A stretch of 64,000 nt of DNA, taken from Myxococcales bacterium. GTDB lineage: Bacteria; Myxococcota_A; Bradymonadia; Bradymonadales; Bradymonadaceae. The notes below the pieces were generated by a model. It ran no database searches and had not been told where the DNA came from. It worked only from the letters and a program-made list of their open reading frames with translations. The translations under genes were made by a program, and so were the position numbers. The stretch lies in contig SLJM01000154.1 of the NCBI GenBank assembly GCA_007135085.1, forward strand, positions 293 to 64,292. Direction: 5' to 3'. This document shows positions 44,768 through 59,696 of the stretch, piece by piece (positions within the stretch are counted from its first letter, which is position 1; each line of letters begins with the position of its first letter).

Positions 44768-44810
44768 CCGCAACGCCCATTTTAGTGATGGGCGTTGCGG
44801 ATTATTTTTT
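44768..44810 (+). terminator. rho-independent terminator between convergent genes
   Basis: Perfect 13-bp stem CCGCAACGCCCAT-tttagtg-ATGGGCGTTGCGG followed by ATTATTTTTT. The U-tract overlaps the stop of the convergent methyltransferase gene. Confidence 0.7.
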
Positions 44811-46772
44811 CTTGGGGGCCTGCTTACGGGCGCGTTTTTCGGCGAGGATGATGATTCGCGGGCTCGATGCTCCCAGGAAGTATCCCTTGTGATGGCGAGC
44901 ACCACTGACCTCGAGAACCTTGAACCCGGCGACGTGAAGCATCTGACGAAGTTCGTGAACGTTGTAGAGCCGGATATAACTGGTGTGCTCCATCGGCGGG
45001 CTGCCGTCTTCGTAGATATAGGAGCGCTGAGCCTGAAGGGTGCTGGTCTGATAATCGAACTCGCTCTCCTCCAAAAAGATGCATCCTTTCCCCTCCCACC
45101 ACAGACGGGTCGGCGTCTGGCGCACCACATAATCGCGGTTGACGACATCCACCAACAGACGTCCCCCGGTTTTCAGGGATCGATGGATGCCCTTGAGCAC
45201 ACGCAGATTGGTCCGATCATCAAAATATCCAAGAGAGGTGTCCCAGACGAAGCACCCATCAAACATGCCCGAGAATTTGAGATCCCGCATATCGCCGCGG
45301 ATGAACTTGACGTTCAAAGATCGGTTTGTCGCTTCTTCGAGGGCGCGCTCCAGAAGGGGACGCGACAGGTCGAGGCCGACCATTTCGTAGCCCCGCTCAC
45401 ATAATTCGACGGAATGACGGCCGAATCCGCAGGCCAGATCGAGAATCCGAGACTTCTTTTTGAGCTTTAAGCTCGCCTCAATAAAGTCGGCATCCTTACT
45501 GGTGATCGATGCAATATTGGATGGAACCGTGCGTAGATACTCTTTACTGAAGACCTTCTCAAACCACACATCCTGCGGTCTGACGGGCCGCTTTTTCTGC
45601 TGTTTCTTTTTCTTCTGCTCTCGCTCCTCCTCGAGGAGTTCCTCCACCAGCCCTCGCATATCGTCATCACCGGCACCGGCGCCGGCGGCTCTGGCCGGTT
45701 CTGGTTCTTTTTTCTTCTCTTTTGGGGCTTGTTCTGGCCTGGCAGGCTCTTCAGACTTGGGCGGCAGGTCGGCTGGCGGTGCAGGTTTCTCCGGCGGAGC
45801 CGGCTTGGCTGGCCCCTTCGGTTCGACGTCTTCATCGTCGAGCTCGATGAGCTCCTCGTCGAGTTCGACCGATTCGTATTCCTCATCCTCTTCGTCGGCC
45901 TCCAGCAGCTCTTCGTCGATCTCGATCTTGCTGGTCACAGGCCCCATGGCCGGGGTTTCGGGCATGGTCTCCGGCATGGAGGCGCTTTTGTCTTCCGATT
46001 TGGCGTCGATGGCCACCGCCTCCAGGGCCGCATCGTCGAGCTCCATCGGCTCTTCCGAATCCTCGGCGATCGACTCCGGTACTTCTTCATCGCCCGCCGA
46101 GGGAGCCTCATCCTGCGGCCGAGATGGCGGGGGTCCCTCGCTGGTCGGTGTGTTCGCAGCGCTCGGTTCCCCGACGATGCGTTCGACGCTGCCCGGCAAC
46201 CCCTCGCGCCATTTCTTGACCAGCACCCGAGGCTGGCAGGCGACAATCTCGGGGGCAAATCGGGCGTCACCTAATATGGGAAGTTCATCCTCTTCGTCTT
46301 CGCTGCCCAGCGCCTCGATAGCCTCCCGATCGAAGGCGTCCATCTGGATGGTCTTGACCATGGACTGCCGATCGTATCCCTGCTCCCCGCCGTCTTCATC
46401 TTCGCTGTCGAGGGGCTCCTCGTCGTCGACCATTTCTTCATCGCCCCCTGCTGTCTCGACTTCTTCGACCGCCCCATCTTGGGATTGACCATCCACGGCC
46501 GCCGCTTCCTCGAGAGCTTCCTTGGAGAGACGTTGAGTCGTCGGCTCTTCGTCGGCAGGCTCTTCGGCGGTCCCATCGTGTTGCTCGGGCACCTTGAACT
46601 CCGGCATCTCGAGCCCCATGCCCTCCAGGGTTTCTCCTTCGTCTGACTCGTGAGCACTATGCTCACTGTCGACGGTCCTTACTTCTTCGGTCAACTCAAT
46701 GACGTCACTCTCTTCTTCGAGCGCAGTCACTCCAGGCGGGGTGTTATCAGCTGATTCTGCCACGAGATTCAA
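44802..46772 (-). CDS. class I SAM-dependent methyltransferase with a ~400-aa poly-acidic disordered N-terminal region
   Basis: The C-terminal ~250 aa carry motif I ILDLACGFGRHSVELCERGYEMVGLDLS and post-I/II elements. The N-terminus is dominated by D/E/P/A low-complexity sequence. Confidence 0.75.
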   Translation of the reverse strand: MNLVAESADNTPPGVTALEEESDVIELTEEVRTVDSEHSAHESDEGETLEGMGLEMPEFKVPEQHDGTAEEPADEEPTTQRLSKEALEEAAAVDGQSQDGAVEEVETAGGDEEMVDDEEPLDSEDEDGGEQGYDRQSMVKTIQMDAFDREAIEALGSEDEEDELPILGDARFAPEIVACQPRVLVKKWREGLPGSVERIVGEPSAANTPTSEGPPPSRPQDEAPSAGDEEVPESIAEDSEEPMELDDAALEAVAIDAKSEDKSASMPETMPETPAMGPVTSKIEIDEELLEADEEDEEYESVELDEELIELDDEDVEPKGPAKPAPPEKPAPPADLPPKSEEPARPEQAPKEKKKEPEPARAAGAGAGDDDMRGLVEELLEEEREQKKKKQQKKRPVRPQDVWFEKVFSKEYLRTVPSNIASITSKDADFIEASLKLKKKSRILDLACGFGRHSVELCERGYEMVGLDLSRPLLERALEEATNRSLNVKFIRGDMRDLKFSGMFDGCFVWDTSLGYFDDRTNLRVLKGIHRSLKTGGRLLVDVVNRDYVVRQTPTRLWWEGKGCIFLEESEFDYQTSTLQAQRSYIYEDGSPPMEHTSYIRLYNVHELRQMLHVAGFKVLEVSGARHHKGYFLGASSPRIIILAEKRARKQAPKKK

Positions 46773-50130: not shown

Positions 50131-50982
50131 TCAAACACGTCCCAGCTCCTCTCCCATCTGTAAGAGCTCTCCCCCAATGAGCCCCTGCCCAAATGCAAAC
50201 TCCCCTGATTCCACCAGCACGATCACCGTCGACCCAAGGTTAAAAACAGCCAGCTCGTCGCCCTGTGAGAACTCAAACTCCTGCTCTGGACGAAACTCTC
50301 GTCGCCGGCGAAAACCGCTGTTCGTACTCAGCGCAGCAAAACTCAGCGAAATGCGGCCCACGCAGGTGGCGCCCACCTTGATGACGGCCACACGGCCCAG
50401 CTGCGGCGACTCCAGATAGGTGATGAGCCGCTCGTTGACCGCGAAGAGCTCGTCGATATTTTCCACGGCGAAGGGATTGACCGGAAAGAGGTGCCCCGGG
50501 ATATAGCTGATCTTGTCCACCCTGCCCTGCACGGGGCAATGGATACGATGGTAGTCCCGAGGTGATAGATAGATCGTGGCGTAGCTTCCGCCACGGAAGT
50601 GTTGCTCTTCTTCGGCGCTGTCCACCAGATCCAGGAGGCGATAGTCTCGGCCCTTGGCCTGAAAGAGGGTCCCCTCTTCGATGGCACCGAAAGCCCCGAG
50701 ACGTCCGTCGACGGGGCTAACGGCCACCTGGGGTTCCTGGGCCTCCACGGTGCGCGCTCCCTGTCGCAAACGCCGTGTAAAAAAGGCGTTGAGGCTCTCA
50801 TACTCCTGGAGAGGCTTTTCGGCCTCCTGGGCATCGACCCCTGAAAAATGAACAAACGACCGGTTGACCACCTGTTGTACCGGCGAGGGAAATTCCACCT
50901 CGCTGATCACACCGAAGGCTCGGCTGATGGCATTTTTAGGCAATCGCTTCAATAGGCCGACGGCGAGATCGGACTTCTTCAT
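50131..50982 (-). CDS. psd: phosphatidylserine decarboxylase proenzyme
   Basis: Self-cleavage motif FNLGSTVIVL, core YATIYLSPRDYHRIHCP, GAGGAG RBS before ATG 50982. Confidence 0.9.
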   Translation of the reverse strand: MKKSDLAVGLLKRLPKNAISRAFGVISEVEFPSPVQQVVNRSFVHFSGVDAQEAEKPLQEYESLNAFFTRRLRQGARTVEAQEPQVAVSPVDGRLGAFGAIEEGTLFQAKGRDYRLLDLVDSAEEEQHFRGGSYATIYLSPRDYHRIHCPVQGRVDKISYIPGHLFPVNPFAVENIDELFAVNERLITYLESPQLGRVAVIKVGATCVGRISLSFAALSTNSGFRRRREFRPEQEFEFSQGDELAVFNLGSTVIVLVESGEFAFGQGLIGGELLQMGEELGRV

Positions 50983-51180
50983 TAGACGCTCCTCTACAGC
51001 TTGCCTTCTGATTTCGTGTAGCCTGAAGAGATTCGGGCCCTTATTGGCCTGGCCCCACAGGGGGCTTATCATTGACCGAAGCACCGGGGATTCGTCAACG
51101 TCGGGAATCCACCTCCCCTATTCCGGTGTTTAAGTTTTTTGTATGAGTCGTCACTGATTGTCCTCACATCGGAGCCCGCT

Positions 51181-51486: not shown

Positions 51487-53151
51487 ATGACGCGTTATTT
51501 CGGTATCCATACCCTGGAAGGAGAGTGGCATAGCCTCCTTCCGCGCTACGCATTACTTTCAGACCGAATCGAATCCAAGCAGATATTGGATATCGGCTGT
51601 GGCTCCGGGATCGGCTCCTCACTGCTGCTGGAGTTGGGCGCCCAGCGGGTCAACGCCATCGATCATCGTCCGGAAGTCCTGGAGCTGGCCCGAGTCAAAC
51701 ACGCCAAACAAGGGCTGGATTTCCACGTCATGTTCTGGGAGGAGCTCGATTTCCCAGACGACTCCTTCGACATGGTCCTATGCCTCGATCCCTCCTCACC
51801 GGTCACCGATCCCTCATTGCTGCGAGAGATCAAGCGAGTCCTTCGACCGGGCGGCGAATATGTCTGCGCCATCGAACGACGCAACGTCGAGGGCATGGAG
51901 AGCCTGCTGCCCCGTTATGGATATTCCAGCGCCGGTGAAGATCTGGAGCTGACCGGCACCGGGGAGAGAGTGCCCCAGCTCGGCGAATTGGAGCAACTCT
52001 TCGAGACCATCGTCTCCGTGGTCCAACGGCCCCGCTATAGCTTCGTCTTCGATTATGCCCCTGAAGACGAGGCGATGCATACCATGCGCCGAAGCTCGGC
52101 CAGCGCCGACGAAAGCGGCCTCTGGGTCGGTGAAAACCCCCATCCCGAAGACGGTTCGGCAGAGCAGACCGACAATCGCCCGGGCCGGTGGATAAGCATC
52201 GATCGGCGGCTGACGGCTAAAGAAGGAGAGTCTGCGGCTGTGGAACTGCTCTTCTGCGGTGACGAACATATGCCGCCGCCGACCCTTCGAGAGATCCAGA
52301 TGCCCTACCGGGGCCTTGTCGATCGGCTCCACCAGCTCTTCTCAGATCTACAACTTCGCCAACACCCCGATCAGCGCGGGTGGGCCTCTGAGGACGACGG
52401 CACGAACAATCAATTTATGGAGCGCGAGAGAACCTCGGAATTCCGCTCCCCACCGCTGGCTCAAGGATCGGGACAGCGCCGTGAGGGACCGGCTCGCACC
52501 TCCCTTCATTATCGCACCGGCGGGGTGAGCACCCACGTGGAGCCCGCCCCCAGCGGCGAATGGCATCACGTGCGAGAGCAGCTCGACCGCATGACCCGGC
52601 TCTACGAGGAAGTGCGCACTCAGATGGAAGATCTCTTCGTCCACACCCGCCAGGAGATCGAACAGCGCGATCGCTATATCGAGCAGCTCGTCGACACGGT
52701 CCATCATCAACGCCATCAGTCAGCCCCCGTCGACGAGACCACCGCCGGAGATGACGAGGCGCCGGCCGATCCCTTCGAACGGACCAAGACCAATATTTAC
52801 CGCCGTGAGGATGTGGCCACAGCGTTGAACTCCAGCACCGACCAGCCGCTACAGGAAGAAGAAGAAGAATCGGAGCCGATGACCACGCAATTCGTCGTCG
52901 ACGTCGACGGCTCACTCGACGAGGAATCAGAGCCGAAGACCAAGCGATTCGTCATCGACGACAGCGAGGTGGATCAAAGCGAGGCCGAGGATACAGGGGA
53001 AGAAGAAGACGCCGAGTTCGAAGAAAATGGAGCCGACGACGGGATGGCTGAGGAATCGGAGCCTGAATCTGCTCCTGAAGTTGGTGAGGATGTGGAAGCT
53101 GACGACGGCGAAAATGTCGATGAGTCCGAAGTTACTGAAACCACCGAGTAA
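51487..53151 (+). CDS. class I SAM-dependent methyltransferase with a long coiled/acidic C-terminal extension
   Basis: N-terminal motif I ILDIGCGSGIGSSLLLELGAQRVNAIDHRPEVLELA and LRPGGEYV. The C-terminal ~350 aa are low complexity and end in a D/E-rich tail. Confidence 0.7.
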   Translation: MTRYFGIHTLEGEWHSLLPRYALLSDRIESKQILDIGCGSGIGSSLLLELGAQRVNAIDHRPEVLELARVKHAKQGLDFHVMFWEELDFPDDSFDMVLCLDPSSPVTDPSLLREIKRVLRPGGEYVCAIERRNVEGMESLLPRYGYSSAGEDLELTGTGERVPQLGELEQLFETIVSVVQRPRYSFVFDYAPEDEAMHTMRRSSASADESGLWVGENPHPEDGSAEQTDNRPGRWISIDRRLTAKEGESAAVELLFCGDEHMPPPTLREIQMPYRGLVDRLHQLFSDLQLRQHPDQRGWASEDDGTNNQFMERERTSEFRSPPLAQGSGQRREGPARTSLHYRTGGVSTHVEPAPSGEWHHVREQLDRMTRLYEEVRTQMEDLFVHTRQEIEQRDRYIEQLVDTVHHQRHQSAPVDETTAGDDEAPADPFERTKTNIYRREDVATALNSSTDQPLQEEEEESEPMTTQFVVDVDGSLDEESEPKTKRFVIDDSEVDQSEAEDTGEEEDAEFEENGADDGMAEESEPESAPEVGEDVEADDGENVDESEVTETTE

Positions 53152-53173
53152 AGATGTGAAGTGCTCTCGACCT

Positions 53174-54679
53174 ATGCTCCCCTCCGTGTGCCGGCGTGCT
53201 GCGCTGTTCTTGTGCACTCTGTCCATGATCGCTGCCTCAGCGATCATATTGAGCGCCGACCAGGCCGCCGCAGCGGGCTTTGAGGTCGGAGAAAACACGC
53301 CCCGCGCCCTGGCCCGCGGTGGTACGGGAGTGGTCAATACGGGCGATTCGTCAGCCCTTTATTTCAACCCTGCCCTTCTGTCGCGTGTCGACGGCGCTCA
53401 GGTATTGTTGAGCAGCAATATCCTCAATCTCGATGTGGAATTTCAACGAGACGACTTCTACGTCGAGCCCGGCGGGGAGCCGGACCGGGTCTTCGAACGG
53501 GCCACCAATCAAACCGGGCTCTTTCCGGCCCCCTTTCTGACGGCGAGCTTCAACATCACCGATGACTTCACCGTGGGAGCCGGACTCTTTGGTCCACCGG
53601 CCTACGGCAATCCCTGCTACGGCCCCATCGAGGACGGGGAATGTCAACTCGACCCCACGGGGGCTACACGAGGAATGGTCATCGAGGCCGATATGATCGT
53701 GGCCTACGGCTCGCTCGGCGCCGGATATGGAATTACTCTGGGCGACGATCGACGACTGGACGTCGGGTTGACCGCCGCCCTGGCCTACCAGCAAACGCAA
53801 TTTGCGGTCGTCGCCGACGCCCAATACCCCATCCAATCCCCCTGGGAGGAAGACCCCCATCACGAGGCCTACTTTCGCGGTGAAGATCTGTCGGGGATGG
53901 CCCCCACGGGGATTGTGGGGCTTGCCTATCAGGACGGACCACTTCGGCTGGCCCTGTCCTATCGGCCTCCGATCAGGTGGCGCACCACCGGGGAGGCAAA
54001 CGTGGAGTTCTCCCAATTTCTTCAGGATATGAACTCCGAGCTCACCGACGACACGATGTATCTCGAGACCTGGCAGGCCGGCTCCCTTCGCTTCGGGTGG
54101 GGCCTTCAGTGGGGCGAACATCCCGCCGATTCGCAACGCCCGCGCTGGGATCTGGAGATCAATACAATCTGGGAAAATTGGTCAGTGGTCGACAATTTCC
54201 AACTCGAATTCGATGGCGATATCTACGTCGACAATATCAACACCGAACTCCCCCTCCACCCGGTCTACCAGCGAAAGGGCTATCAGGACACGATCAGTAT
54301 TCGCACGGGGCTGAGCTATGGAGTCAACTCACGACTTACCGCCCACGGCGGGGCCTTCTTCGAGACCGCCGCCCAACCCGTGGCCTATACGTCGGCGGAC
54401 TTCGTCAGCTGGGAGCGATACTCGGCGAGTCTGGGAACCTCGATATACCTCCCCGCCAATATTACCCTCGATCTGGGCTATGCCTTTATCTATTCTCCTG
54501 ATCGGACCGTGCGAAATGGCCAGGTCTACAATCCGATTCCCATGAGTAACTGCCGAGGACCGGACTATAATGACAGCAGCTGCACCCAGCCTGGCCAACC
54601 CCCTGGCAATCCGCAAAATGAGGGCACCTGGCGTGCCAATTTTCAGATCTTCAGCGCCGGCCTGAGCTGGAATTATTAA
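53174..54679 (+). CDS. second FadL/OmpP1/TodX-family outer-membrane channel (start ATG 53174 or GTG 53156)
   Basis: Signal ...ILSADQAAAAGFEVGENTPRALARGGTGVVNTGDSSALYFNPALLS, beta-barrel strand pattern, C-terminal ...FSAGLSWNY. ORF-track start 53027 overlaps the upstream gene and was trimmed. Confidence 0.7.
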   Translation: MLPSVCRRAALFLCTLSMIAASAIILSADQAAAAGFEVGENTPRALARGGTGVVNTGDSSALYFNPALLSRVDGAQVLLSSNILNLDVEFQRDDFYVEPGGEPDRVFERATNQTGLFPAPFLTASFNITDDFTVGAGLFGPPAYGNPCYGPIEDGECQLDPTGATRGMVIEADMIVAYGSLGAGYGITLGDDRRLDVGLTAALAYQQTQFAVVADAQYPIQSPWEEDPHHEAYFRGEDLSGMAPTGIVGLAYQDGPLRLALSYRPPIRWRTTGEANVEFSQFLQDMNSELTDDTMYLETWQAGSLRFGWGLQWGEHPADSQRPRWDLEINTIWENWSVVDNFQLEFDGDIYVDNINTELPLHPVYQRKGYQDTISIRTGLSYGVNSRLTAHGGAFFETAAQPVAYTSADFVSWERYSASLGTSIYLPANITLDLGYAFIYSPDRTVRNGQVYNPIPMSNCRGPDYNDSSCTQPGQPPGNPQNEGTWRANFQIFSAGLSWNY

Positions 54680-54713
54680 GGTCTCGGCCTCACCGATCTT
54701 CGTAACGCCCAAG

Positions 54714-55751
54714 ATGGACTCCATGGAACCACAAAACGAATCGGACGCCCCTGGTGGACTGCTCCTCCTCGGGGCCAACGGGGCCATCCTTCACGCCCCC
54801 ACTTTCTTTCGCCGGGCCCTTTATCTGGACAACCGGGAGGCCCCCTCTTTTTTTCATCTCTGCGATCCCACTGATCCCCCCTATCTGAGCCTCCACCGAA
54901 TATTTCGACACCCCTATGGGGCCACCGAATATCACCTGCGAGTCCAGGGTCGATTCGGAAGCAGCAAGGGCTTTCGCTACTGGCCCCTGGAGCAATCAGA
55001 TAAGCCGGGGTCGGACACGGTCGCTTTTTATATCGTCGACGATTCGGCGATCCTCCAGCACCACGACTGGGATTATCGGCGACTGCGCCGTGAGATCCTG
55101 AACGACGTCAAAGAATCGCTGTCCAACCACTTCAAGACTCGCCTGGCCACATTACAGCTGCTGGCCGAGACCCTTCGTGACGCCCCCGAGATCGCTGCCG
55201 AGTCGGCGCCCCGTATCATGGGAGCCGTGGACAAATTAAAGAAGTCCGTCAATCAGGTCATGACCGGCATCGATGATATCGAATCACCCACGGACTATCA
55301 GGACAGCCCGGTTCGCCTCACCGATCTAGCAGGTGTGGTGGGCACCTGGGGCAACTCGGGCGTCTCCGTGCACTGCCAGGTCAACGGTGTGAGTCCATCG
55401 ACGCTCATCCCCGCCTCATCGATTGAGCGAATCGTGCTGCCCATCGTTGAAAACGCCGTGGAAGCCTCCCCCAAGGGCTCCACGGTGGAGGTGATCATCG
55501 ACGAGGTCGACGATCGCTTCGCCCATTTTAGGATTATCGATCAAGGGGAAGGGATGAACGACCGCGTCAAAGAGCGTGCCGGTGATCCCTTCTTTACGAC
55601 GCGCACCAACCACCTCGGACTGGGGCTGGCCCACACCCGAGAAGCTATTCGCGATGCCGGTGGGGAGTGGAATATCGAGTCCAAGGCCCGAAAAGGCACG
55701 GAGGTGACATTGCTCCTTCCGATCACCACTTCCTCCCAACTTTTCCGATAA
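54714..55751 (+). CDS. cytoplasmic sensor histidine kinase (PAS-like N-terminus, HisKA-like, HATPase_c)
   Basis: H-box-like ESLSNHFKTRLATLQLL, N-box IVENAVEAS, G1 IIDQGEGM, G2 NHLGLGLAHTRE. No transmembrane segment seen. Confidence 0.75.
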   Translation: MDSMEPQNESDAPGGLLLLGANGAILHAPTFFRRALYLDNREAPSFFHLCDPTDPPYLSLHRIFRHPYGATEYHLRVQGRFGSSKGFRYWPLEQSDKPGSDTVAFYIVDDSAILQHHDWDYRRLRREILNDVKESLSNHFKTRLATLQLLAETLRDAPEIAAESAPRIMGAVDKLKKSVNQVMTGIDDIESPTDYQDSPVRLTDLAGVVGTWGNSGVSVHCQVNGVSPSTLIPASSIERIVLPIVENAVEASPKGSTVEVIIDEVDDRFAHFRIIDQGEGMNDRVKERAGDPFFTTRTNHLGLGLAHTREAIRDAGGEWNIESKARKGTEVTLLLPITTSSQLFR

Positions 55752-55780
55752 ACCGATCCCTGCTCGAAAAGGGATTAAAT

Positions 55781-56164
55781 TTAGATGAAGGGGCTGAGTC
55801 CTTCTTGGATCTTTGTCAGATGCTTTCGCATCAAGGCCTGGACGAAACCGACCGTGGTGTCCCGCTCGGTGACGACCAGCCAGAGGTAGCCCGTGTCTGC
55901 GATCGGCACGGACACGAAGGTCGAGCTACCGCTGTTGAGCACGATCTCCTCGGTCTGGCCTGCCAGGGGGGTTCCCTCCAGGATAGAACCGCTGAGCCGA
56001 TAGAGATCGCTGTGAAAGGCGTCGGCCCCGGCGCTATCCAGGGGATCGGTCTTCGAACTCGCCGCCAGGGCGATGCCCGTTCGGCTGTCGATGACACTGG
56101 TATGTCTGCAGCCGGGAACTTCACCGGATAGATTCTGGAGCATTTCGTGAAGCGTTGCACCCAT
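55781..56164 (-). CDS. Roadblock/LC7 (MglB/MglC-like) domain protein
   Basis: 127 aa. Pattern VPGCRHTSVIDSRTGIALAAS...EEIVLNSGSSTFVSVPIADTGYLWLVVTERDTTVGFV matches the Roadblock/LC7 alpha-beta-alpha layout (by eye). AGGAG RBS. Confidence 0.6.
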   Translation of the reverse strand: MGATLHEMLQNLSGEVPGCRHTSVIDSRTGIALAASSKTDPLDSAGADAFHSDLYRLSGSILEGTPLAGQTEEIVLNSGSSTFVSVPIADTGYLWLVVTERDTTVGFVQALMRKHLTKIQEGLSPFI

Positions 56165-56209
56165 GAGGTCAACTCCTATTGGAGTGAGGGGCCGTGGTCA
56201 GGACCGGTT

Positions 56210-57898
56210 TCAAGACAATGACAGTTTCTTGGCCAACTGTCGCATCAATACCAATGCGATCCCCAGGCTGACCTGGCGATCGACGATGGCCACGTGAATA
56301 AATGGACGCCCCTCGACGGAGCGAATCAGAAGATAATCGCCGTTGAGCACCAACTGGAATTCCATTAACTCGTCGTCTTCATCAAGGGCATTGACACAGC
56401 GCCCCCCGCGTCCGAAGACCTCGGTTAACCGGGGCCCCAATTGGGCCATATCCAGGTCGTCGCCGTAGAAGAGGTTTTCCGCCTGCAGCACCTCGCCGGT
56501 GGTTGTCGTCACCAACGCCGTCGCCTTGAGGCCCGGGCACTCCCTGGTAAACCCACCGAGGGCCACCGTCATCGGGTCGTTGGAGGCCTTGGCTTCCAGT
56601 GAGACCGCATCGTTTTGTCGTCCGTTGAGAGCAGGCGCCGCAAATAATTCGTACTCTCCGCTCTCCTCGGTGGTCATCACCGGTGCGGCCACGGCGGTCA
56701 TCCCCGGGGAAGTACTGCTGCGCCGTCGGGCAGGTTGACTGCGGGCAGTCTCTTCCGTTGCATCATTGGCCTCCGCGGCCGCTCCGTCCTCCATCTCACT
56801 GAGATGAGCGGCAAACCCCAGGGGCGACGCCTCGTCGAATGACTCCTCAACTTCCGGCACTTGTGCAGGTTGTGACGACTCCTGGGGCTGGTCATCCGAT
56901 TTCTCGGCAGAAGCCTCGGCGATTTTCTCATCTTCGACAGGAGTTCCATCCATGGCCGCTTCGCTGGCCCGACTGATCTCCTCCAGTTCAGCCTCGGAGA
57001 AGAAGATACTATTGCTCTCCTCTTCGAGTCCTCCCTGGGCCTCCTCATCAGCGGGTCCGGCCCCTTCCGAAACCTCCGACCCCAACGCTGCCGCGCCGAG
57101 CCCCATGGGAGTCATGGTACGCTTTGGCCGGTCGTCGTCGGCTCCCTCCGATGAAGCCTGCTCTTCTTGCTGAGCCTTCTCCTCTTTTTTTCGTTCATGC
57201 TCCTCACGCTGACGCTTGAGGCGCTGCTCGTCTGTGCGCTTGACCCCTTCGAGAAGCAGATCCTGCCACCCCATATTGATGGTGCGATCTACGGGCTCGA
57301 AGTCCGACTGCATGAAGATATCGCCCTGACGCAGGTCGAGCATGATATAGACCGCCTCTGCCCCGGTCTCGCCGTCGAATTCGGCGTGAACCACTTCGCC
57401 GGCGTCGAAGACGATCCGCCCTCGATGGTCGCGATGCTTGAGATGGAGCAGGGCCGTGCGCTTTGCCAGACAGAGCATCTGAATGATGTCCGTGAGCTCC
57501 AGATCGGAGAGCACTCCCTGAAAACCTTCCTTTTCGTCGAGCACCTCCAAGACGGCATGTCTCAATTCATCGACAGTAAAAGGTTTTTCGATATAGTGGG
57601 AGATGCCGATGCGCTCGGCAAAATTCTGGATCCGATTGGTCCCGAAGGCGGTGATGATCATCACCCTGGCATCGGGAACCATCTCTTTGGCCCGGAGGAT
57701 GAGCTGAAAGCCATCGACCTGCCCAGGCATTTTGATATCTGAGATCAGAAGATCGATGGATTCTCGCTCCATGATCTTCAGGCCCTCTTCGCCAGATCCG
57801 GCGGTGTGCACCTCGATATCATCACGCTCCGGGAACAGGTTGCGCTCCAGCGCCCACAGCAGATGTTCCTCTTCGTCTACGATCAGTATATGATACAT
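56210..57898 (-). CDS. response regulator: REC, PATAN/DUF4388, ~200-aa acidic linker, C-terminal Roadblock/LC7-like domain
   Basis: REC: MYHILIVDEEE...DLLISDIKMPGQVDG...MIITAFG. DUF4388: FQGVLSDLELTDIIQMLCLAKRTALLHLKHRDHRGRIVFDAGEVVHAEFDGETGAEAVYIMLDLRQGDIF. C-terminal: CPGLKATALVTTTTGEVL...EFQLVLNGDYLLIRSVEGRPFIHVAIVDRQVSLGIA. Confidence 0.85.
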   Translation of the reverse strand: MYHILIVDEEEHLLWALERNLFPERDDIEVHTAGSGEEGLKIMERESIDLLISDIKMPGQVDGFQLILRAKEMVPDARVMIITAFGTNRIQNFAERIGISHYIEKPFTVDELRHAVLEVLDEKEGFQGVLSDLELTDIIQMLCLAKRTALLHLKHRDHRGRIVFDAGEVVHAEFDGETGAEAVYIMLDLRQGDIFMQSDFEPVDRTINMGWQDLLLEGVKRTDEQRLKRQREEHERKKEEKAQQEEQASSEGADDDRPKRTMTPMGLGAAALGSEVSEGAGPADEEAQGGLEEESNSIFFSEAELEEISRASEAAMDGTPVEDEKIAEASAEKSDDQPQESSQPAQVPEVEESFDEASPLGFAAHLSEMEDGAAAEANDATEETARSQPARRRSSTSPGMTAVAAPVMTTEESGEYELFAAPALNGRQNDAVSLEAKASNDPMTVALGGFTRECPGLKATALVTTTTGEVLQAENLFYGDDLDMAQLGPRLTEVFGRGGRCVNALDEDDELMEFQLVLNGDYLLIRSVEGRPFIHVAIVDRQVSLGIALVLMRQLAKKLSLS

Positions 57899-58049
57899 CG
57901 TCCCGAGAAGCTCCGGTAACGGTGATTGTTGATTGAATCAACTGGCTGCAGGCAACGTAATTGTGCGTTTATCGCCAAAATTAAACATAGCCGCCCTCAG
58001 GCGTCCCAAACGACCTGCCATTGAACACCACCACAGGTCTATCGCCTCC

Positions 58050-59696
58050 ATGAGCTCGCCCTATATAAGCACGGTTGCCTGGACCGGACAAGCCGTTCAG
58101 CCCGTCTCCTTTGCCATGGCCGCTGTGAGTTTTGCGATCTTGATCTTAGTTCAAGCCGCCTGCTCGGCTCCGGCCCCCCCGACGATAGGGGACGACGAAA
58201 TGGTGGGGCGCCCCGCTGCTGAGGCGCCGGCCACTGAATCTCCGCCCCCTCGCCAGGGAGCCCTCTGGTATCATTTAACCCCCGAGGGCGATACCCTGGC
58301 AGTCAGAATGCGCCTCCTCCAGCCGCCGACGAGGGCGACCTTCTTTTTGCCCGGCCCCTGGGCGGGACGGGGGGATTTCGACGATCTAATCAGCCTGGGG
58401 CATGCCCAGGGCCCCGACGGTCCCCTGCCCTTAAAGGTCGATCGCGACCGAGGGCGGCTCGATGTCTCTACAGGCGGCGCAGACTGGATCGAGGTTACCT
58501 ACCGGGTTCACACTCGCTCCGATCGCGACGAAGCACACCGATTCACCCCCTGGCAGGTGGATACCGCCTTTTTCGCTTACGCCCCTACGATCCTGATCTT
58601 GCCCAGCGCCGGAGTCGCCCGTCAGCTCATCGACATTCCCGTCGAGGTTCATATCCCATCGGGCTGGAACCTCGCCCATACCTGGCCCAAACATCATCTG
58701 GAGACTACTGACGACGGCCGCCAGGTCGCCGGTTTCGTCGCCGATGACGTGCGCTCTTTGCGCGATGCATTTATCGCCGCCGGCGCCGACTGGAAGACTG
58801 TGCATCACCAGATGCCCTCGGGCCGCCTATCTGTGACCTTGAGCGATCAATTCGAGCTCGACGGGGACCAGCTTCTGTCGGTGGCCGCCGAGATCTGCGG
58901 CGAGTATCAAGCTCAATTCGGAGTTTATGAGGACGTCTCGGTTTTTATAATGCCCGTTCAGGATGATGCCAATGATTCACTTCGGGGAAGCGGCCGACGC
59001 GGCGGGTTCGTCCTGGAGATCCCCCCTGACCAAGAGGTGGATGACGATCTCCTCCTCCTGCTCGCCCACGAAGCATTTCATATGTGGAATGGTCACCATC
59101 TAGTTCCCGACGCTGACGCCGCCGACCAGACGATGTGGTTCAAAGAGGGGGTCACCCACTATATGGCACTCAAGACGTTGGCCAGGCTCGGCCTCATCGA
59201 TGGCCGCGCCGTACGCCGTGAGCTCGCCCTGACCGGTCAATACTATCTTCGAAATCCCATCATCGCAGGCGGCCAGGTGCGCGACGTGGACCGCCGACGT
59301 TTTCCCTACGATCAGGGAGTGCTCATCGCACTGGCCCTCGATCTGGCCCTCTTCGAAGCCAGCGGTGGCGCCGTCGAGCTCAAGGACTGGATCGACGTCC
59401 TCCTCTCCTCGCAGTTTGCCGATGTGATCGACGCCTACGACCTCGATGTCCTTCGCACCAGCTTTCGAGCGACGAGCCAGGATTTGGGGACCGCTCCCCT
59501 GCGGCGCTACGACGATCTGGTTCGCCGCAACGAAACCATCGCCGTCCCCCGCCTTTTCAGGCGCCTGGGCCTACACTTTCTTCACGATGGTCCAGACACA
59601 CCGGCGCGGCTGCTGCCTCTCGACGACGATCATGAGGTTTTTGACGCCATCTTTTTCAATCCTGCGGTCAATCACCAATCCGAAAGCGACGATTAA
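58050..59696 (+). CDS. M61-like gluzincin metallopeptidase, probable lipoprotein (start uncertain)
   Basis: HEAFHMWNG, then 21 residues, then WFKEGVTHY (HExxH plus downstream Glu). Possible lipobox LVQAAC. Confidence 0.7.
   Translation: MSSPYISTVAWTGQAVQPVSFAMAAVSFAILILVQAACSAPAPPTIGDDEMVGRPAAEAPATESPPPRQGALWYHLTPEGDTLAVRMRLLQPPTRATFFLPGPWAGRGDFDDLISLGHAQGPDGPLPLKVDRDRGRLDVSTGGADWIEVTYRVHTRSDRDEAHRFTPWQVDTAFFAYAPTILILPSAGVARQLIDIPVEVHIPSGWNLAHTWPKHHLETTDDGRQVAGFVADDVRSLRDAFIAAGADWKTVHHQMPSGRLSVTLSDQFELDGDQLLSVAAEICGEYQAQFGVYEDVSVFIMPVQDDANDSLRGSGRRGGFVLEIPPDQEVDDDLLLLLAHEAFHMWNGHHLVPDADAADQTMWFKEGVTHYMALKTLARLGLIDGRAVRRELALTGQYYLRNPIIAGGQVRDVDRRRFPYDQGVLIALALDLALFEASGGAVELKDWIDVLLSSQFADVIDAYDLDVLRTSFRATSQDLGTAPLRRYDDLVRRNETIAVPRLFRRLGLHFLHDGPDTPARLLPLDDDHEVFDAIFFNPAVNHQSESDD

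Follow-up and report, generated by a model that had tools for sequence, protein, structure and literature searches.

Gene layout of the locus

The stretch of DNA analysed here (the window: 64,000 nucleotides of contig SLJM01000154.1, assembly GCA_007135085.1, from a member of the Bradymonadaceae) carries, between positions 51487 and 57898, five genes which an earlier note, made from the sequence alone, had read as one candidate module for cell polarity or small-GTPase signalling. Our analysis shows that the region is made up of two conserved, separable units in tail-to-tail arrangement: unit A (55781-57898, minus strand), which is a two-gene operon of a response regulator followed by a small Roadblock protein, and unit B (51487-55751, plus strand), which carries a methyltransferase, a porin and a kinase-like gene. 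The regulator/Roadblock pair of unit A is a real, conserved and so far undescribed variant of the known PATAN/Roadblock/MglA signalling theme. The five genes, with the basis of each call from domains or from the list of open reading frames (ORFs), are the following:

56210-57898, minus strand: response regulator gene, 562 amino acids (aa); REC and DUF4388/PATAN by Pfam, Roadblock by fold
55781-56164, minus strand: stand-alone Roadblock/LC7 gene, 127 aa; by fold and profile
54714-55751, plus strand: kinase-like gene; ORF list and HATPase_c
53027-54679, plus strand: FadL/TodX-family ORF, with likely start at 53156 or 53174
51487-53151, plus strand: S-adenosylmethionine (SAM) methyltransferase gene; ORF list

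Coordinates and spacings (29, 34, 45 and 4-22 nt) of these ORFs in the earlier note agree with the ORF list. The regulator gene lies 45 nt upstream of the 127-aa gene on the minus strand, the convergent stops of the kinase-like and 127-aa genes are 29 nt apart, the gap between the FadL and kinase-like genes is 34 nt, and the one between the methyltransferase and FadL genes is 4 or 22 nt, for starts 53156 or 53174, respectively. The G+C content is even throughout the window. Promoter and terminator scans gave counts near the shuffled expectation, and thus provide no evidence on operon structure. All five genes are conserved in about 20 Bradymonadales genomes, and named homologues of the regulator occur in Lujinxingia, Bradymonas and Persicimonas, named species of which have genome records carrying homologues of the pair.

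Domain structure of the regulator

From its N-terminus to its C-terminus, the regulator is composed of the following parts, all encoded on the minus strand:

57539-57898: REC domain, residues 1-120 (PF00072 over residues 4-116)
57224-57520: PATAN/DUF4388 domain, residues 127-225 (PF14332)
56573-57223: acidic disordered linker, residues 226-442 (composition)
56975-57004: linker motif FFSEAELEEI, residues 299-308 (alignment of 25 sequences)
56213-56572: C-terminal Roadblock/LC7 domain, residues 443-562 (profile, AlphaFold2, Foldseek)

The REC and PATAN/DUF4388 calls of the earlier note are borne out by Pfam hidden Markov models: REC passes with 70.9 bits (expect value, E, 1.2e-19; cut-off 30.2), and PATAN with 70.2 bits (2.1e-19; cut-off 25) over profile positions 1-121 of 122, a search for PATAN domains across the whole genome giving identical coordinates. 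In an alignment of 25 regulators (A1), residues D8, E9, D54 (the phospho-acceptor aspartate), T83 and K105 of REC are invariant in all 25, so that the REC domain should be phosphorylatable. PATAN is the best-conserved portion of the family. Across the order, identity over REC and PATAN is about 70-78%, and over the regulator Roadblock domain only 25-50%. There are about 98 full-length homologues of the regulator, all of Bradymonadales type.

The linker is acidic by composition, as had been noted before: residues 226-442 contain 24% Asp/Glu and 15% hydrophobic residues and have a net charge of -32. It cannot be aligned between relatives save for short motifs, among which is FFSEAELEEI, where F300, E304 and E307 are invariant in 25 of 25 regulators; a related motif, GFSxxE[LF]xE[ML]A, is present in two other families of the class. 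FFSEAELEEI is acidic-hydrophobic and may be a docking motif.

Roadblock identity of the C-terminal domain and of the small protein

Two Roadblock/LC7 calls of the earlier note, one for the regulator C-terminus and one for the 127-aa protein, hold by fold and by family profiles, but not by the Pfam cut-off. The 127-aa protein scores 14.4 bits with Robl_LC7 (PF03259), below the cut-off of 23, and the regulator C-terminus has no Pfam Robl_LC7 match; an NCBIfam scan of the window proteins added no specific family. Since both calls missed the Pfam cut-off, we built family alignments, namely A1, A2 (the C-terminal domains of the regulators) and A3 (21 small proteins from syntenic loci). Within the regulator family, PF03259 is matched by 4 of 21 C-terminal domains, the best at 9e-7. 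When compared with the PDB, the A2 profile found the Robl_LC7 structures 7f8m (1.2e-4) and 9jue (0.01) across the full profile length, and the A3 profile found 7f8m (0.014) and MglC, 7ct3 (0.022).

The fold, named beforehand in the earlier note as one of the points that could decide against it, is that of Roadblock in both predicted structures. AlphaFold2 models have a mean confidence (pLDDT) of 92.2 for the 127-aa protein and 93.6 for regulator residues 443-562, and both have the alpha-beta-beta-alpha-beta-beta-beta-alpha topology. A Foldseek search of the PDB returned Roadblock/LC7 proteins in all of the top 50 matches, with best template-modelling (TM) scores of 0.8-0.86; among them are 3kye, MglB, MglC, LAMTOR/MP1-p14 and Asgard Roadblocks. 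The regulator domain reaches TM 0.85 to the Asgard Roadblock 9jue and 0.8 to MglB, and the 127-aa protein 0.8 to 3kye, MglB and LAMTOR, with MglC 7ct3 (TM 0.61) also among its top matches. On the strength of these models, both domains can confidently be assigned to the Roadblock/LC7 fold.

By sequence, neither domain is assigned to MglB or MglC. A Pfam Roadblock search of this genome retrieves MglB only, which shows how divergent the two window domains are. The genome has its own MglB, adjoining mglA on another contig, and a separate MglC homologue (1e-18), distinct from the 127-aa protein.

The regulator and the small Roadblock protein as a pair

As judged by profile comparison, the two Roadblock domains are each other's closest paralogues. 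Alignment of the two families with hhalign gave a probability of 98.4% (E 7e-15), and the A2 profile searched against this genome finds the regulator and the 127-aa protein only (1.5e-9), not MglB. The small Roadblock gene lies directly downstream of the regulator in every Bradymonadales locus that has sequence there, with a spacing of 10-110 nt as measured between the edges of tblastn matches, and the same order of the pair is found in two other families of the class (L053, L058). The small protein is present in 29 of 35 genomes of the same family, and all seven class genomes without it are also without the Roadblock domain of the regulator; one genus is represented among the seven by each of its three genomes, of which one is assembled in 10 contigs. 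The two Roadblock domains are therefore gained and lost together. Because the two domains are closest paralogues, are always adjacent and are lost together, the regulator Roadblock domain and the 127-aa protein probably form a heterodimer.

In one of these other families (L058:6288-11924) a hybrid PAS kinase stands before the pair and two large TPR proteins, of 710 and 1139 aa, stand after it. Some TPR proteins of Myxococcus, such as SgmX, are MglA effectors.

The earlier note had considered the fusion of the three elements in one chain as unusual, and this view has to be given up. When searched against 1.84 billion representative proteins, the A2 profile gave at least 150 matches at E <= 1e-3, 45 of them at E <= 1e-10, and those sampled include REC-PATAN-Roadblock proteins, PATAN-Roadblock proteins without detectable REC and stand-alone Roadblocks; with so many (REC-)PATAN-Roadblock matches, the three-domain fusion is not rare. 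Some of the homologues bear the label 'regulator of Ras-like GTPase activity', given by the JGI pipeline. We found no paper on the fused REC-PATAN-Roadblock architecture in the literature searched.

According to a passage in Wuichet and Sogaard-Andersen (PMC4316618), citing Makarova et al. 2006, PATAN genes are neighbours of mglA and mglB, and in the Synechocystis regulator PixE the PATAN domain is the output domain, which binds PilB1 and PilC (bioRxiv 10.1101/2021.06.11.447907). In a Thermodesulfobacteriota outgroup (L032:8001-11292) genes for Hpt, CheW and CheD come after a tandem of two REC-PATAN genes (221 and 224 aa); this chemosensory cluster, in which PATAN serves as output, hints that Che-type kinases can feed receivers of this sort.

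Related modules in Polyangia

With the A3 profile, weaker homologues (50-62 bits) also turn up in a small number of other Myxococcota, and their loci in Polyangiaceae and Labilithrix (L054/L060, L057, L059/L067, L061, L063, L066, L068) have a common plan. A REC-PATAN-Roadblock regulator of 410-550 aa, 33-35% identical to the window regulator over REC-PATAN, is divergent from a gene for a protein of 490-650 aa, which is MglA-like in its N-terminal domain and has a coiled-coil tail with KKPKKGWFG at its end. Next comes a homologue of the small Roadblock protein (E 1e-14 to 1e-19 with the small-protein profile), followed in L054, the sole Polyangia locus scanned with Pfam, by a PATAN protein, and then a second MglA-like protein of about 530 aa, after which a canonical PAS-HisKA-HATPase kinase often stands. 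This arrangement with two MglA-family GTPases is seen in all six Polyangia loci that have full flanks. We found no description of the module in the literature searched.

Such flanking of the pair by two MglA-family GTPases supports a GTPase link by descent, and the Polyangia loci are the best evidence for an evolution of this Roadblock subfamily in partnership with MglA-family GTPases. The Polyangia module resembles the window in its homologous regulator and small Roadblock protein, the gene of the latter being placed downstream of that side of the locus on which the regulator stands. It differs by its two long MglA-family GTPases, the extra PATAN protein (L054) and the canonical histidine kinase; in Bradymonadales these extra genes are all missing from the locus, and the genome encodes no second GTPase of the MglA family. 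By comparison with the Polyangia relative, one may learn how GTPases are gained by such modules or lost from them.

GTPase, polarity and pilus genes elsewhere in the genome

The statement of the earlier note that no MglA-like GTPase is encoded at the locus holds, as the sole MglA of this genome (66% identity, with an M. xanthus MglA sequence as the query) is encoded on another contig. An MglB gene lies directly upstream of mglA, both on contig C409 of this genome (G000), and an MglC homologue (C151:2777-3259, minus strand) matches M. xanthus MglC (the 7ct3 sequence) at 1e-18, so by homology this Bradymonadales genome has a Myxococcus-type polarity core of MglA and MglB with an MglC homologue. 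Searched with a profile of MglA-family domains, the genome showed no second such GTPase; the next matches are a fragment of MnmE and LepA. A crude search of low sensitivity for RomR-like proteins (REC with a low-complexity tail) found none in this genome. The genome also encodes several ATPases of the PilB/GspE type and seven PATAN proteins. Each of the 15 class genomes checked has MglA, also the seven in which the pair is missing.

The link with small GTPases and polarity drawn in the earlier note is plausible for the regulator/Roadblock pair, by the Polyangia loci (6/6) and by the MglA, MglB and MglC homologues of this genome, but not for all five genes. The search for a GTPase proposed there located the one MglA elsewhere in the genome, but the co-occurrence test gave no information, MglA being present in every class genome checked.

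The kinase-like protein and the separability of the two units

The third gene of unit B had been described as a cytoplasmic PAS-like histidine kinase, which is true only in part. The protein has a conserved PAS-like N-domain, a degenerate DHp helix and an intact GHKL ATP-binding domain (HATPase_c, 63 bits, 4e-17), no hydrophobic or membrane segment, and a histidine, His139 (nt 55128-55130), aligned with the phospho-His of canonical kinases from the same genome. But its HisKA match is below threshold (14.2 bits, E 0.047, cut-off 26.9), and a conserved phospho-accepting histidine is lacking in the family: the position is occupied by His in 6 of 18 orthologues and by Tyr, Phe, Gln, Asn, Asp, Glu or Arg in the other 12, Tyr being found in three, two of which are among the closest relatives. 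The N, G1, F and G2 boxes, with N247, D276, G278, G280, D291-P292-F293, G302 and G304, are invariant among 17 aligned orthologues (alignment A4). As the histidine is replaced in 12 of 18 orthologues and the ATP boxes are invariant, autophosphorylation on His is not the conserved function of this family. Judged by its motifs, of which those for ATP binding are intact, the protein is a pseudo-kinase or an atypical kinase, and a member that is independent of the usual phospho-His is unlikely as the dedicated kinase of the regulator. The window copy is a histidine kinase by sequence only, and autophosphorylation of its His139 could still occur. That the phospho-His is dispensable in a protein whose ATP-binding motifs are all kept poses one more small puzzle. 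Orthology with the kinases of the Polyangia modules was considered and rejected, for with the family profile their scores do not exceed those of unrelated kinases encoded in this genome.

We compared the gene order by tblastn of the window proteins with 29 related loci, and it proved syntenic across the Bradymonadales, as expected in the earlier note. The order is kept in about 15 genomes: peptidase, regulator and Roadblock, then on the opposite strand kinase-like gene, porin and methyltransferase, and then a putative phosphatidylserine decarboxylase gene (psd). The exceptions are instructive. In two genomes (L018, L024) the kinase-like gene is absent, with no orthologue genome-wide, and the regulator, Roadblock, porin and methyltransferase genes are retained; in L024 the methyltransferase and porin genes have moved to the other side. 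In the L027 genome the regulator and Roadblock genes stand among unrelated neighbours, and the block of kinase-like gene, porin, methyltransferase and putative psd is found on a separate contig. Two other families of the class carry the pair without unit B genes nearby. Finally, the kinase-like gene is inverted in four genomes (L013, L015, L023, L026), so as to be co-directional with the regulator and Roadblock genes. From the separations, the rearrangement and the losses of the kinase-like gene it follows that the stable units are, on the one hand, the regulator with the Roadblock protein and, on the other, the methyltransferase with the porin, usually accompanied by the kinase-like gene and psd. 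The five genes as one module, as they had been presented before, cannot be upheld.

These data bear directly on a pathway of all five genes, in which a hydrophobic compound entering through FadL would be sensed by the PAS-like kinase and passed on to REC and, through the Roadblock domains, to a GTPase switch. Adjacency of the genes in the same order in about 15 genomes, the short gaps inside the plus-strand unit, His139 at the canonical position in the window copy, the four co-directional inversions and the canonical PAS kinases that end the homologous Polyangia modules all speak for such a pathway. We consider it nonetheless distinctly improbable, given the replacement of the phospho-His in 12 of 18 orthologues with invariant ATP-binding boxes, the two genomes that keep the other four genes without the kinase-like one, the genome whose kinase-like gene, together with porin, methyltransferase and psd, lies on another contig than the regulator, the two families with the pair and no adjoining unit B genes, and the want of any special similarity between the kinase-like family and the Polyangia module kinases. 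Nothing supports the hydrophobic cue, which the earlier note had suggested to run from the FadL porin via the kinase into a polarity or GTPase switch; where the block is split, it is porin, methyltransferase and psd that the kinase-like gene accompanies, and not the regulator.

The kinase-like protein might also be tied to the pair in another way, by analogy with Caulobacter, where DivL, with Tyr in place of His, is a pseudo-kinase partner of DivK. It would then read the phosphorylation of REC via its DHp-like helices, without phosphotransfer, and link it with an output that depends on ATP. Three orthologues have Tyr for His, which recalls DivL, with the surrounding helix and the ATP motifs conserved, and the gene always adjoins the pair in Lujinxingia-type genomes and is co-directional with it in four; the separate contig and the gene losses count against this partnership exactly as against the five-gene pathway, and we hold it to be highly improbable.

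A possible role of the regulator/Roadblock pair

We see about an even chance that unit A is a phosphorylation-gated accessory adaptor of a polarity/pilus system and that unit B is separate from it. In such an adaptor, REC would control the output of PATAN, and an acidic tether of roughly 215 residues would link this output to the Roadblock heterodimer. The two Roadblock domains would join in a heterodimeric platform, in the manner of MP1/p14 and of MglB dimers, and this platform would bind the single MglA GTPase of the cell or the Roadblock regulators MglB and MglC. PATAN would contact a component from the motor of type IV pili or some other polar target, as in cyanobacteria, and phosphorylation of Asp54, by a kinase which may be of Che type, would switch the assembly. 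The window pair would be a reduced relative of the Polyangia module, which retains two MglA-family GTPases, and the kinase-like member of unit B would bind ATP but not depend on the usual phospho-His.

Several observations weigh against this adaptor reading. Neither Roadblock family profile (A2, A3) matches MglB by sequence, and the match of the 127-aa family to MglC is marginal (E 0.022). No GTPase gene adjoins the pair at any locus examined in class Bradymonadia, and since MglA is present everywhere regardless of the pair, their co-occurrence is uninformative. As to the separateness of unit B, the inversions which make the kinase-like gene co-directional with the pair allow some functional tie to unit A, and the window's own kinase-like copy retains His139. 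Gene order kept within one order may, moreover, be due in part to shared ancestry and not to function.

Some of these points would be expected if the pair were GTPase-independent, with the Roadblock heterodimer serving only as a dimerisation or scaffold module and the GTPase link seen in Polyangia lost in Bradymonadia. By this heterodimer the phospho-switchable PATAN adaptor would then be tethered to some other partner, for instance an ATPase of pili or of secretion, a different NTPase or the kinase-like protein. In accordance with this, no GTPase gene is adjacent at the class loci examined, MglA persists unchanged where the pair is lost, MglB is not matched at the sequence level, and seven PATAN proteins and several PilB/GspE-type ATPases are at hand as possible partners. 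However, the characterised Roadblock/LC7 platforms among the fold matches (MglB, MglC, LAMTOR) all regulate or scaffold small GTPases, the Polyangia homologues are embedded between two MglA-family GTPases, and MglA, MglB and MglC are all present in this genome, so we regard GTPase independence as rather unlikely.

Returning to an adaptor of the polarity/pilus system, one may go further and propose that in Bradymonadales the dedicated GTPases were replaced by a single chain uniting a phospho-receiver, a PATAN domain that binds the pilus motor and one half of the Roadblock heterodimer; with its small partner, this chain would act as a phosphorylation-gated GTPase-activating protein, guanine nucleotide exchange factor or scaffold of the housekeeping MglA. 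We think this stronger proposal unlikely; if it were true, one tethered complex would take over tasks which in Myxococcus are divided among RomR, MglC and a PATAN adaptor, and phosphorelay, GTPase polarity and pilus motor would be physically linked. The signalling inputs to the MglA polarity switch and to the type IV pilus motor are known in detail for Myxococcus only. That a REC-PATAN-Roadblock fusion is kept with its Roadblock partner across an order of predatory bacteria suggests one physical complex of the three elements.

Comparison with known systems

A close parallel is the polarity module of Myxococcus xanthus (MglA, MglB, MglC, RomR/RomX), which likewise has Roadblock-fold proteins and a REC protein with an acidic disordered region, and of which MglA, MglB and an MglC homologue are also encoded in this genome. 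Unlike that module, the window has REC, PATAN and Roadblock in one chain, its genes do not adjoin mglA, and its Roadblocks are a separate subfamily, with no sequence match to MglB and E 0.022 to MglC. RomR, in which REC is followed by a Pro-rich linker and a Glu-rich C-terminal region and which binds RomX and MglC, is without a PATAN or Roadblock domain, and so the architecture of the window regulator differs from it.

Cyanobacterial PatA-type regulators (PixG, PixE, LsiR, PatA) also combine REC and PATAN. In the window their order is reversed, with REC first, a tether and a Roadblock domain are added, and the gene stands outside a chemosensory operon, although the outgroup REC-PATAN genes are inside one.

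The Streptomyces conservon (CvnA kinase, CvnB Roadblock, CvnC and CvnD GTPase; PMC4316618) shares with the locus a kinase-type gene beside a Roadblock gene. The window is, however, without CvnC or CvnD, and its kinase-like protein is soluble, degenerate in the H-box and separable from the Roadblock genes.

In Ragulator, the LAMTOR MP1-p14 pair consists of two paralogous Roadblock chains, as is predicted for the pair here, with a fold TM of about 0.8; Ragulator is a eukaryotic lysosomal scaffold for Rag GTPases, while the window heterodimer is a predicted one.

A FadL-type channel gene beside a two-component system is known from todX with todST, and in the window, too, a FadL/TodX-family channel gene adjoins kinase-like and receiver genes. 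The likeness ends there: the window regulator is without a DNA-binding output, the adjacency is broken in some relatives, the kinase-like family has no conserved phospho-His, and there are no catabolic genes.

Other genes of unit B and neighbouring genes

Unit B is probably envelope- or lipid-related. Its first gene encodes an acidic-tailed SAM methyltransferase, as had been predicted, and one of class I: Methyltransf_11 (66.3 bits, 4e-18) and Methyltransf_25 (65.9 bits) pass the Pfam cut-offs, the protein reached no NCBIfam equivalog cut-off, and its tail (residues 421-554) has 39% Asp/Glu and a net charge of -45. The FadL/TodX channel is equally firm, with 76 bits for PF03349/Toluene_X (2.6e-21, cut-off 29.7) over profile positions 3-390 of 421. 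Relatives of the porin ORF align from residue 44 at the earliest (q44-q80), and the likely start is at 53174, which would give a signal-peptide-like N-terminus. The methyltransferase gene adjoins the FadL gene in every locus showing both.

Two genes flank the units:

50131-51084, minus strand: 317-aa neighbour gene, putative psd (reading of the sequence)
57933-59696, plus strand: peptidase gene, divergent from the regulator and kept beside it in nearly all Bradymonadales loci

The 317-aa neighbour reads as a putative phosphatidylserine decarboxylase and is kept beside the methyltransferase in 14 loci. Relatives of the peptidase align from about residue 36-69, which puts its probable start near 58050 and leaves a divergent promoter region of about 150 nt before the regulator. 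A second methyltransferase with a very long acidic tail is encoded in the window at 44802-46772 on the minus strand.

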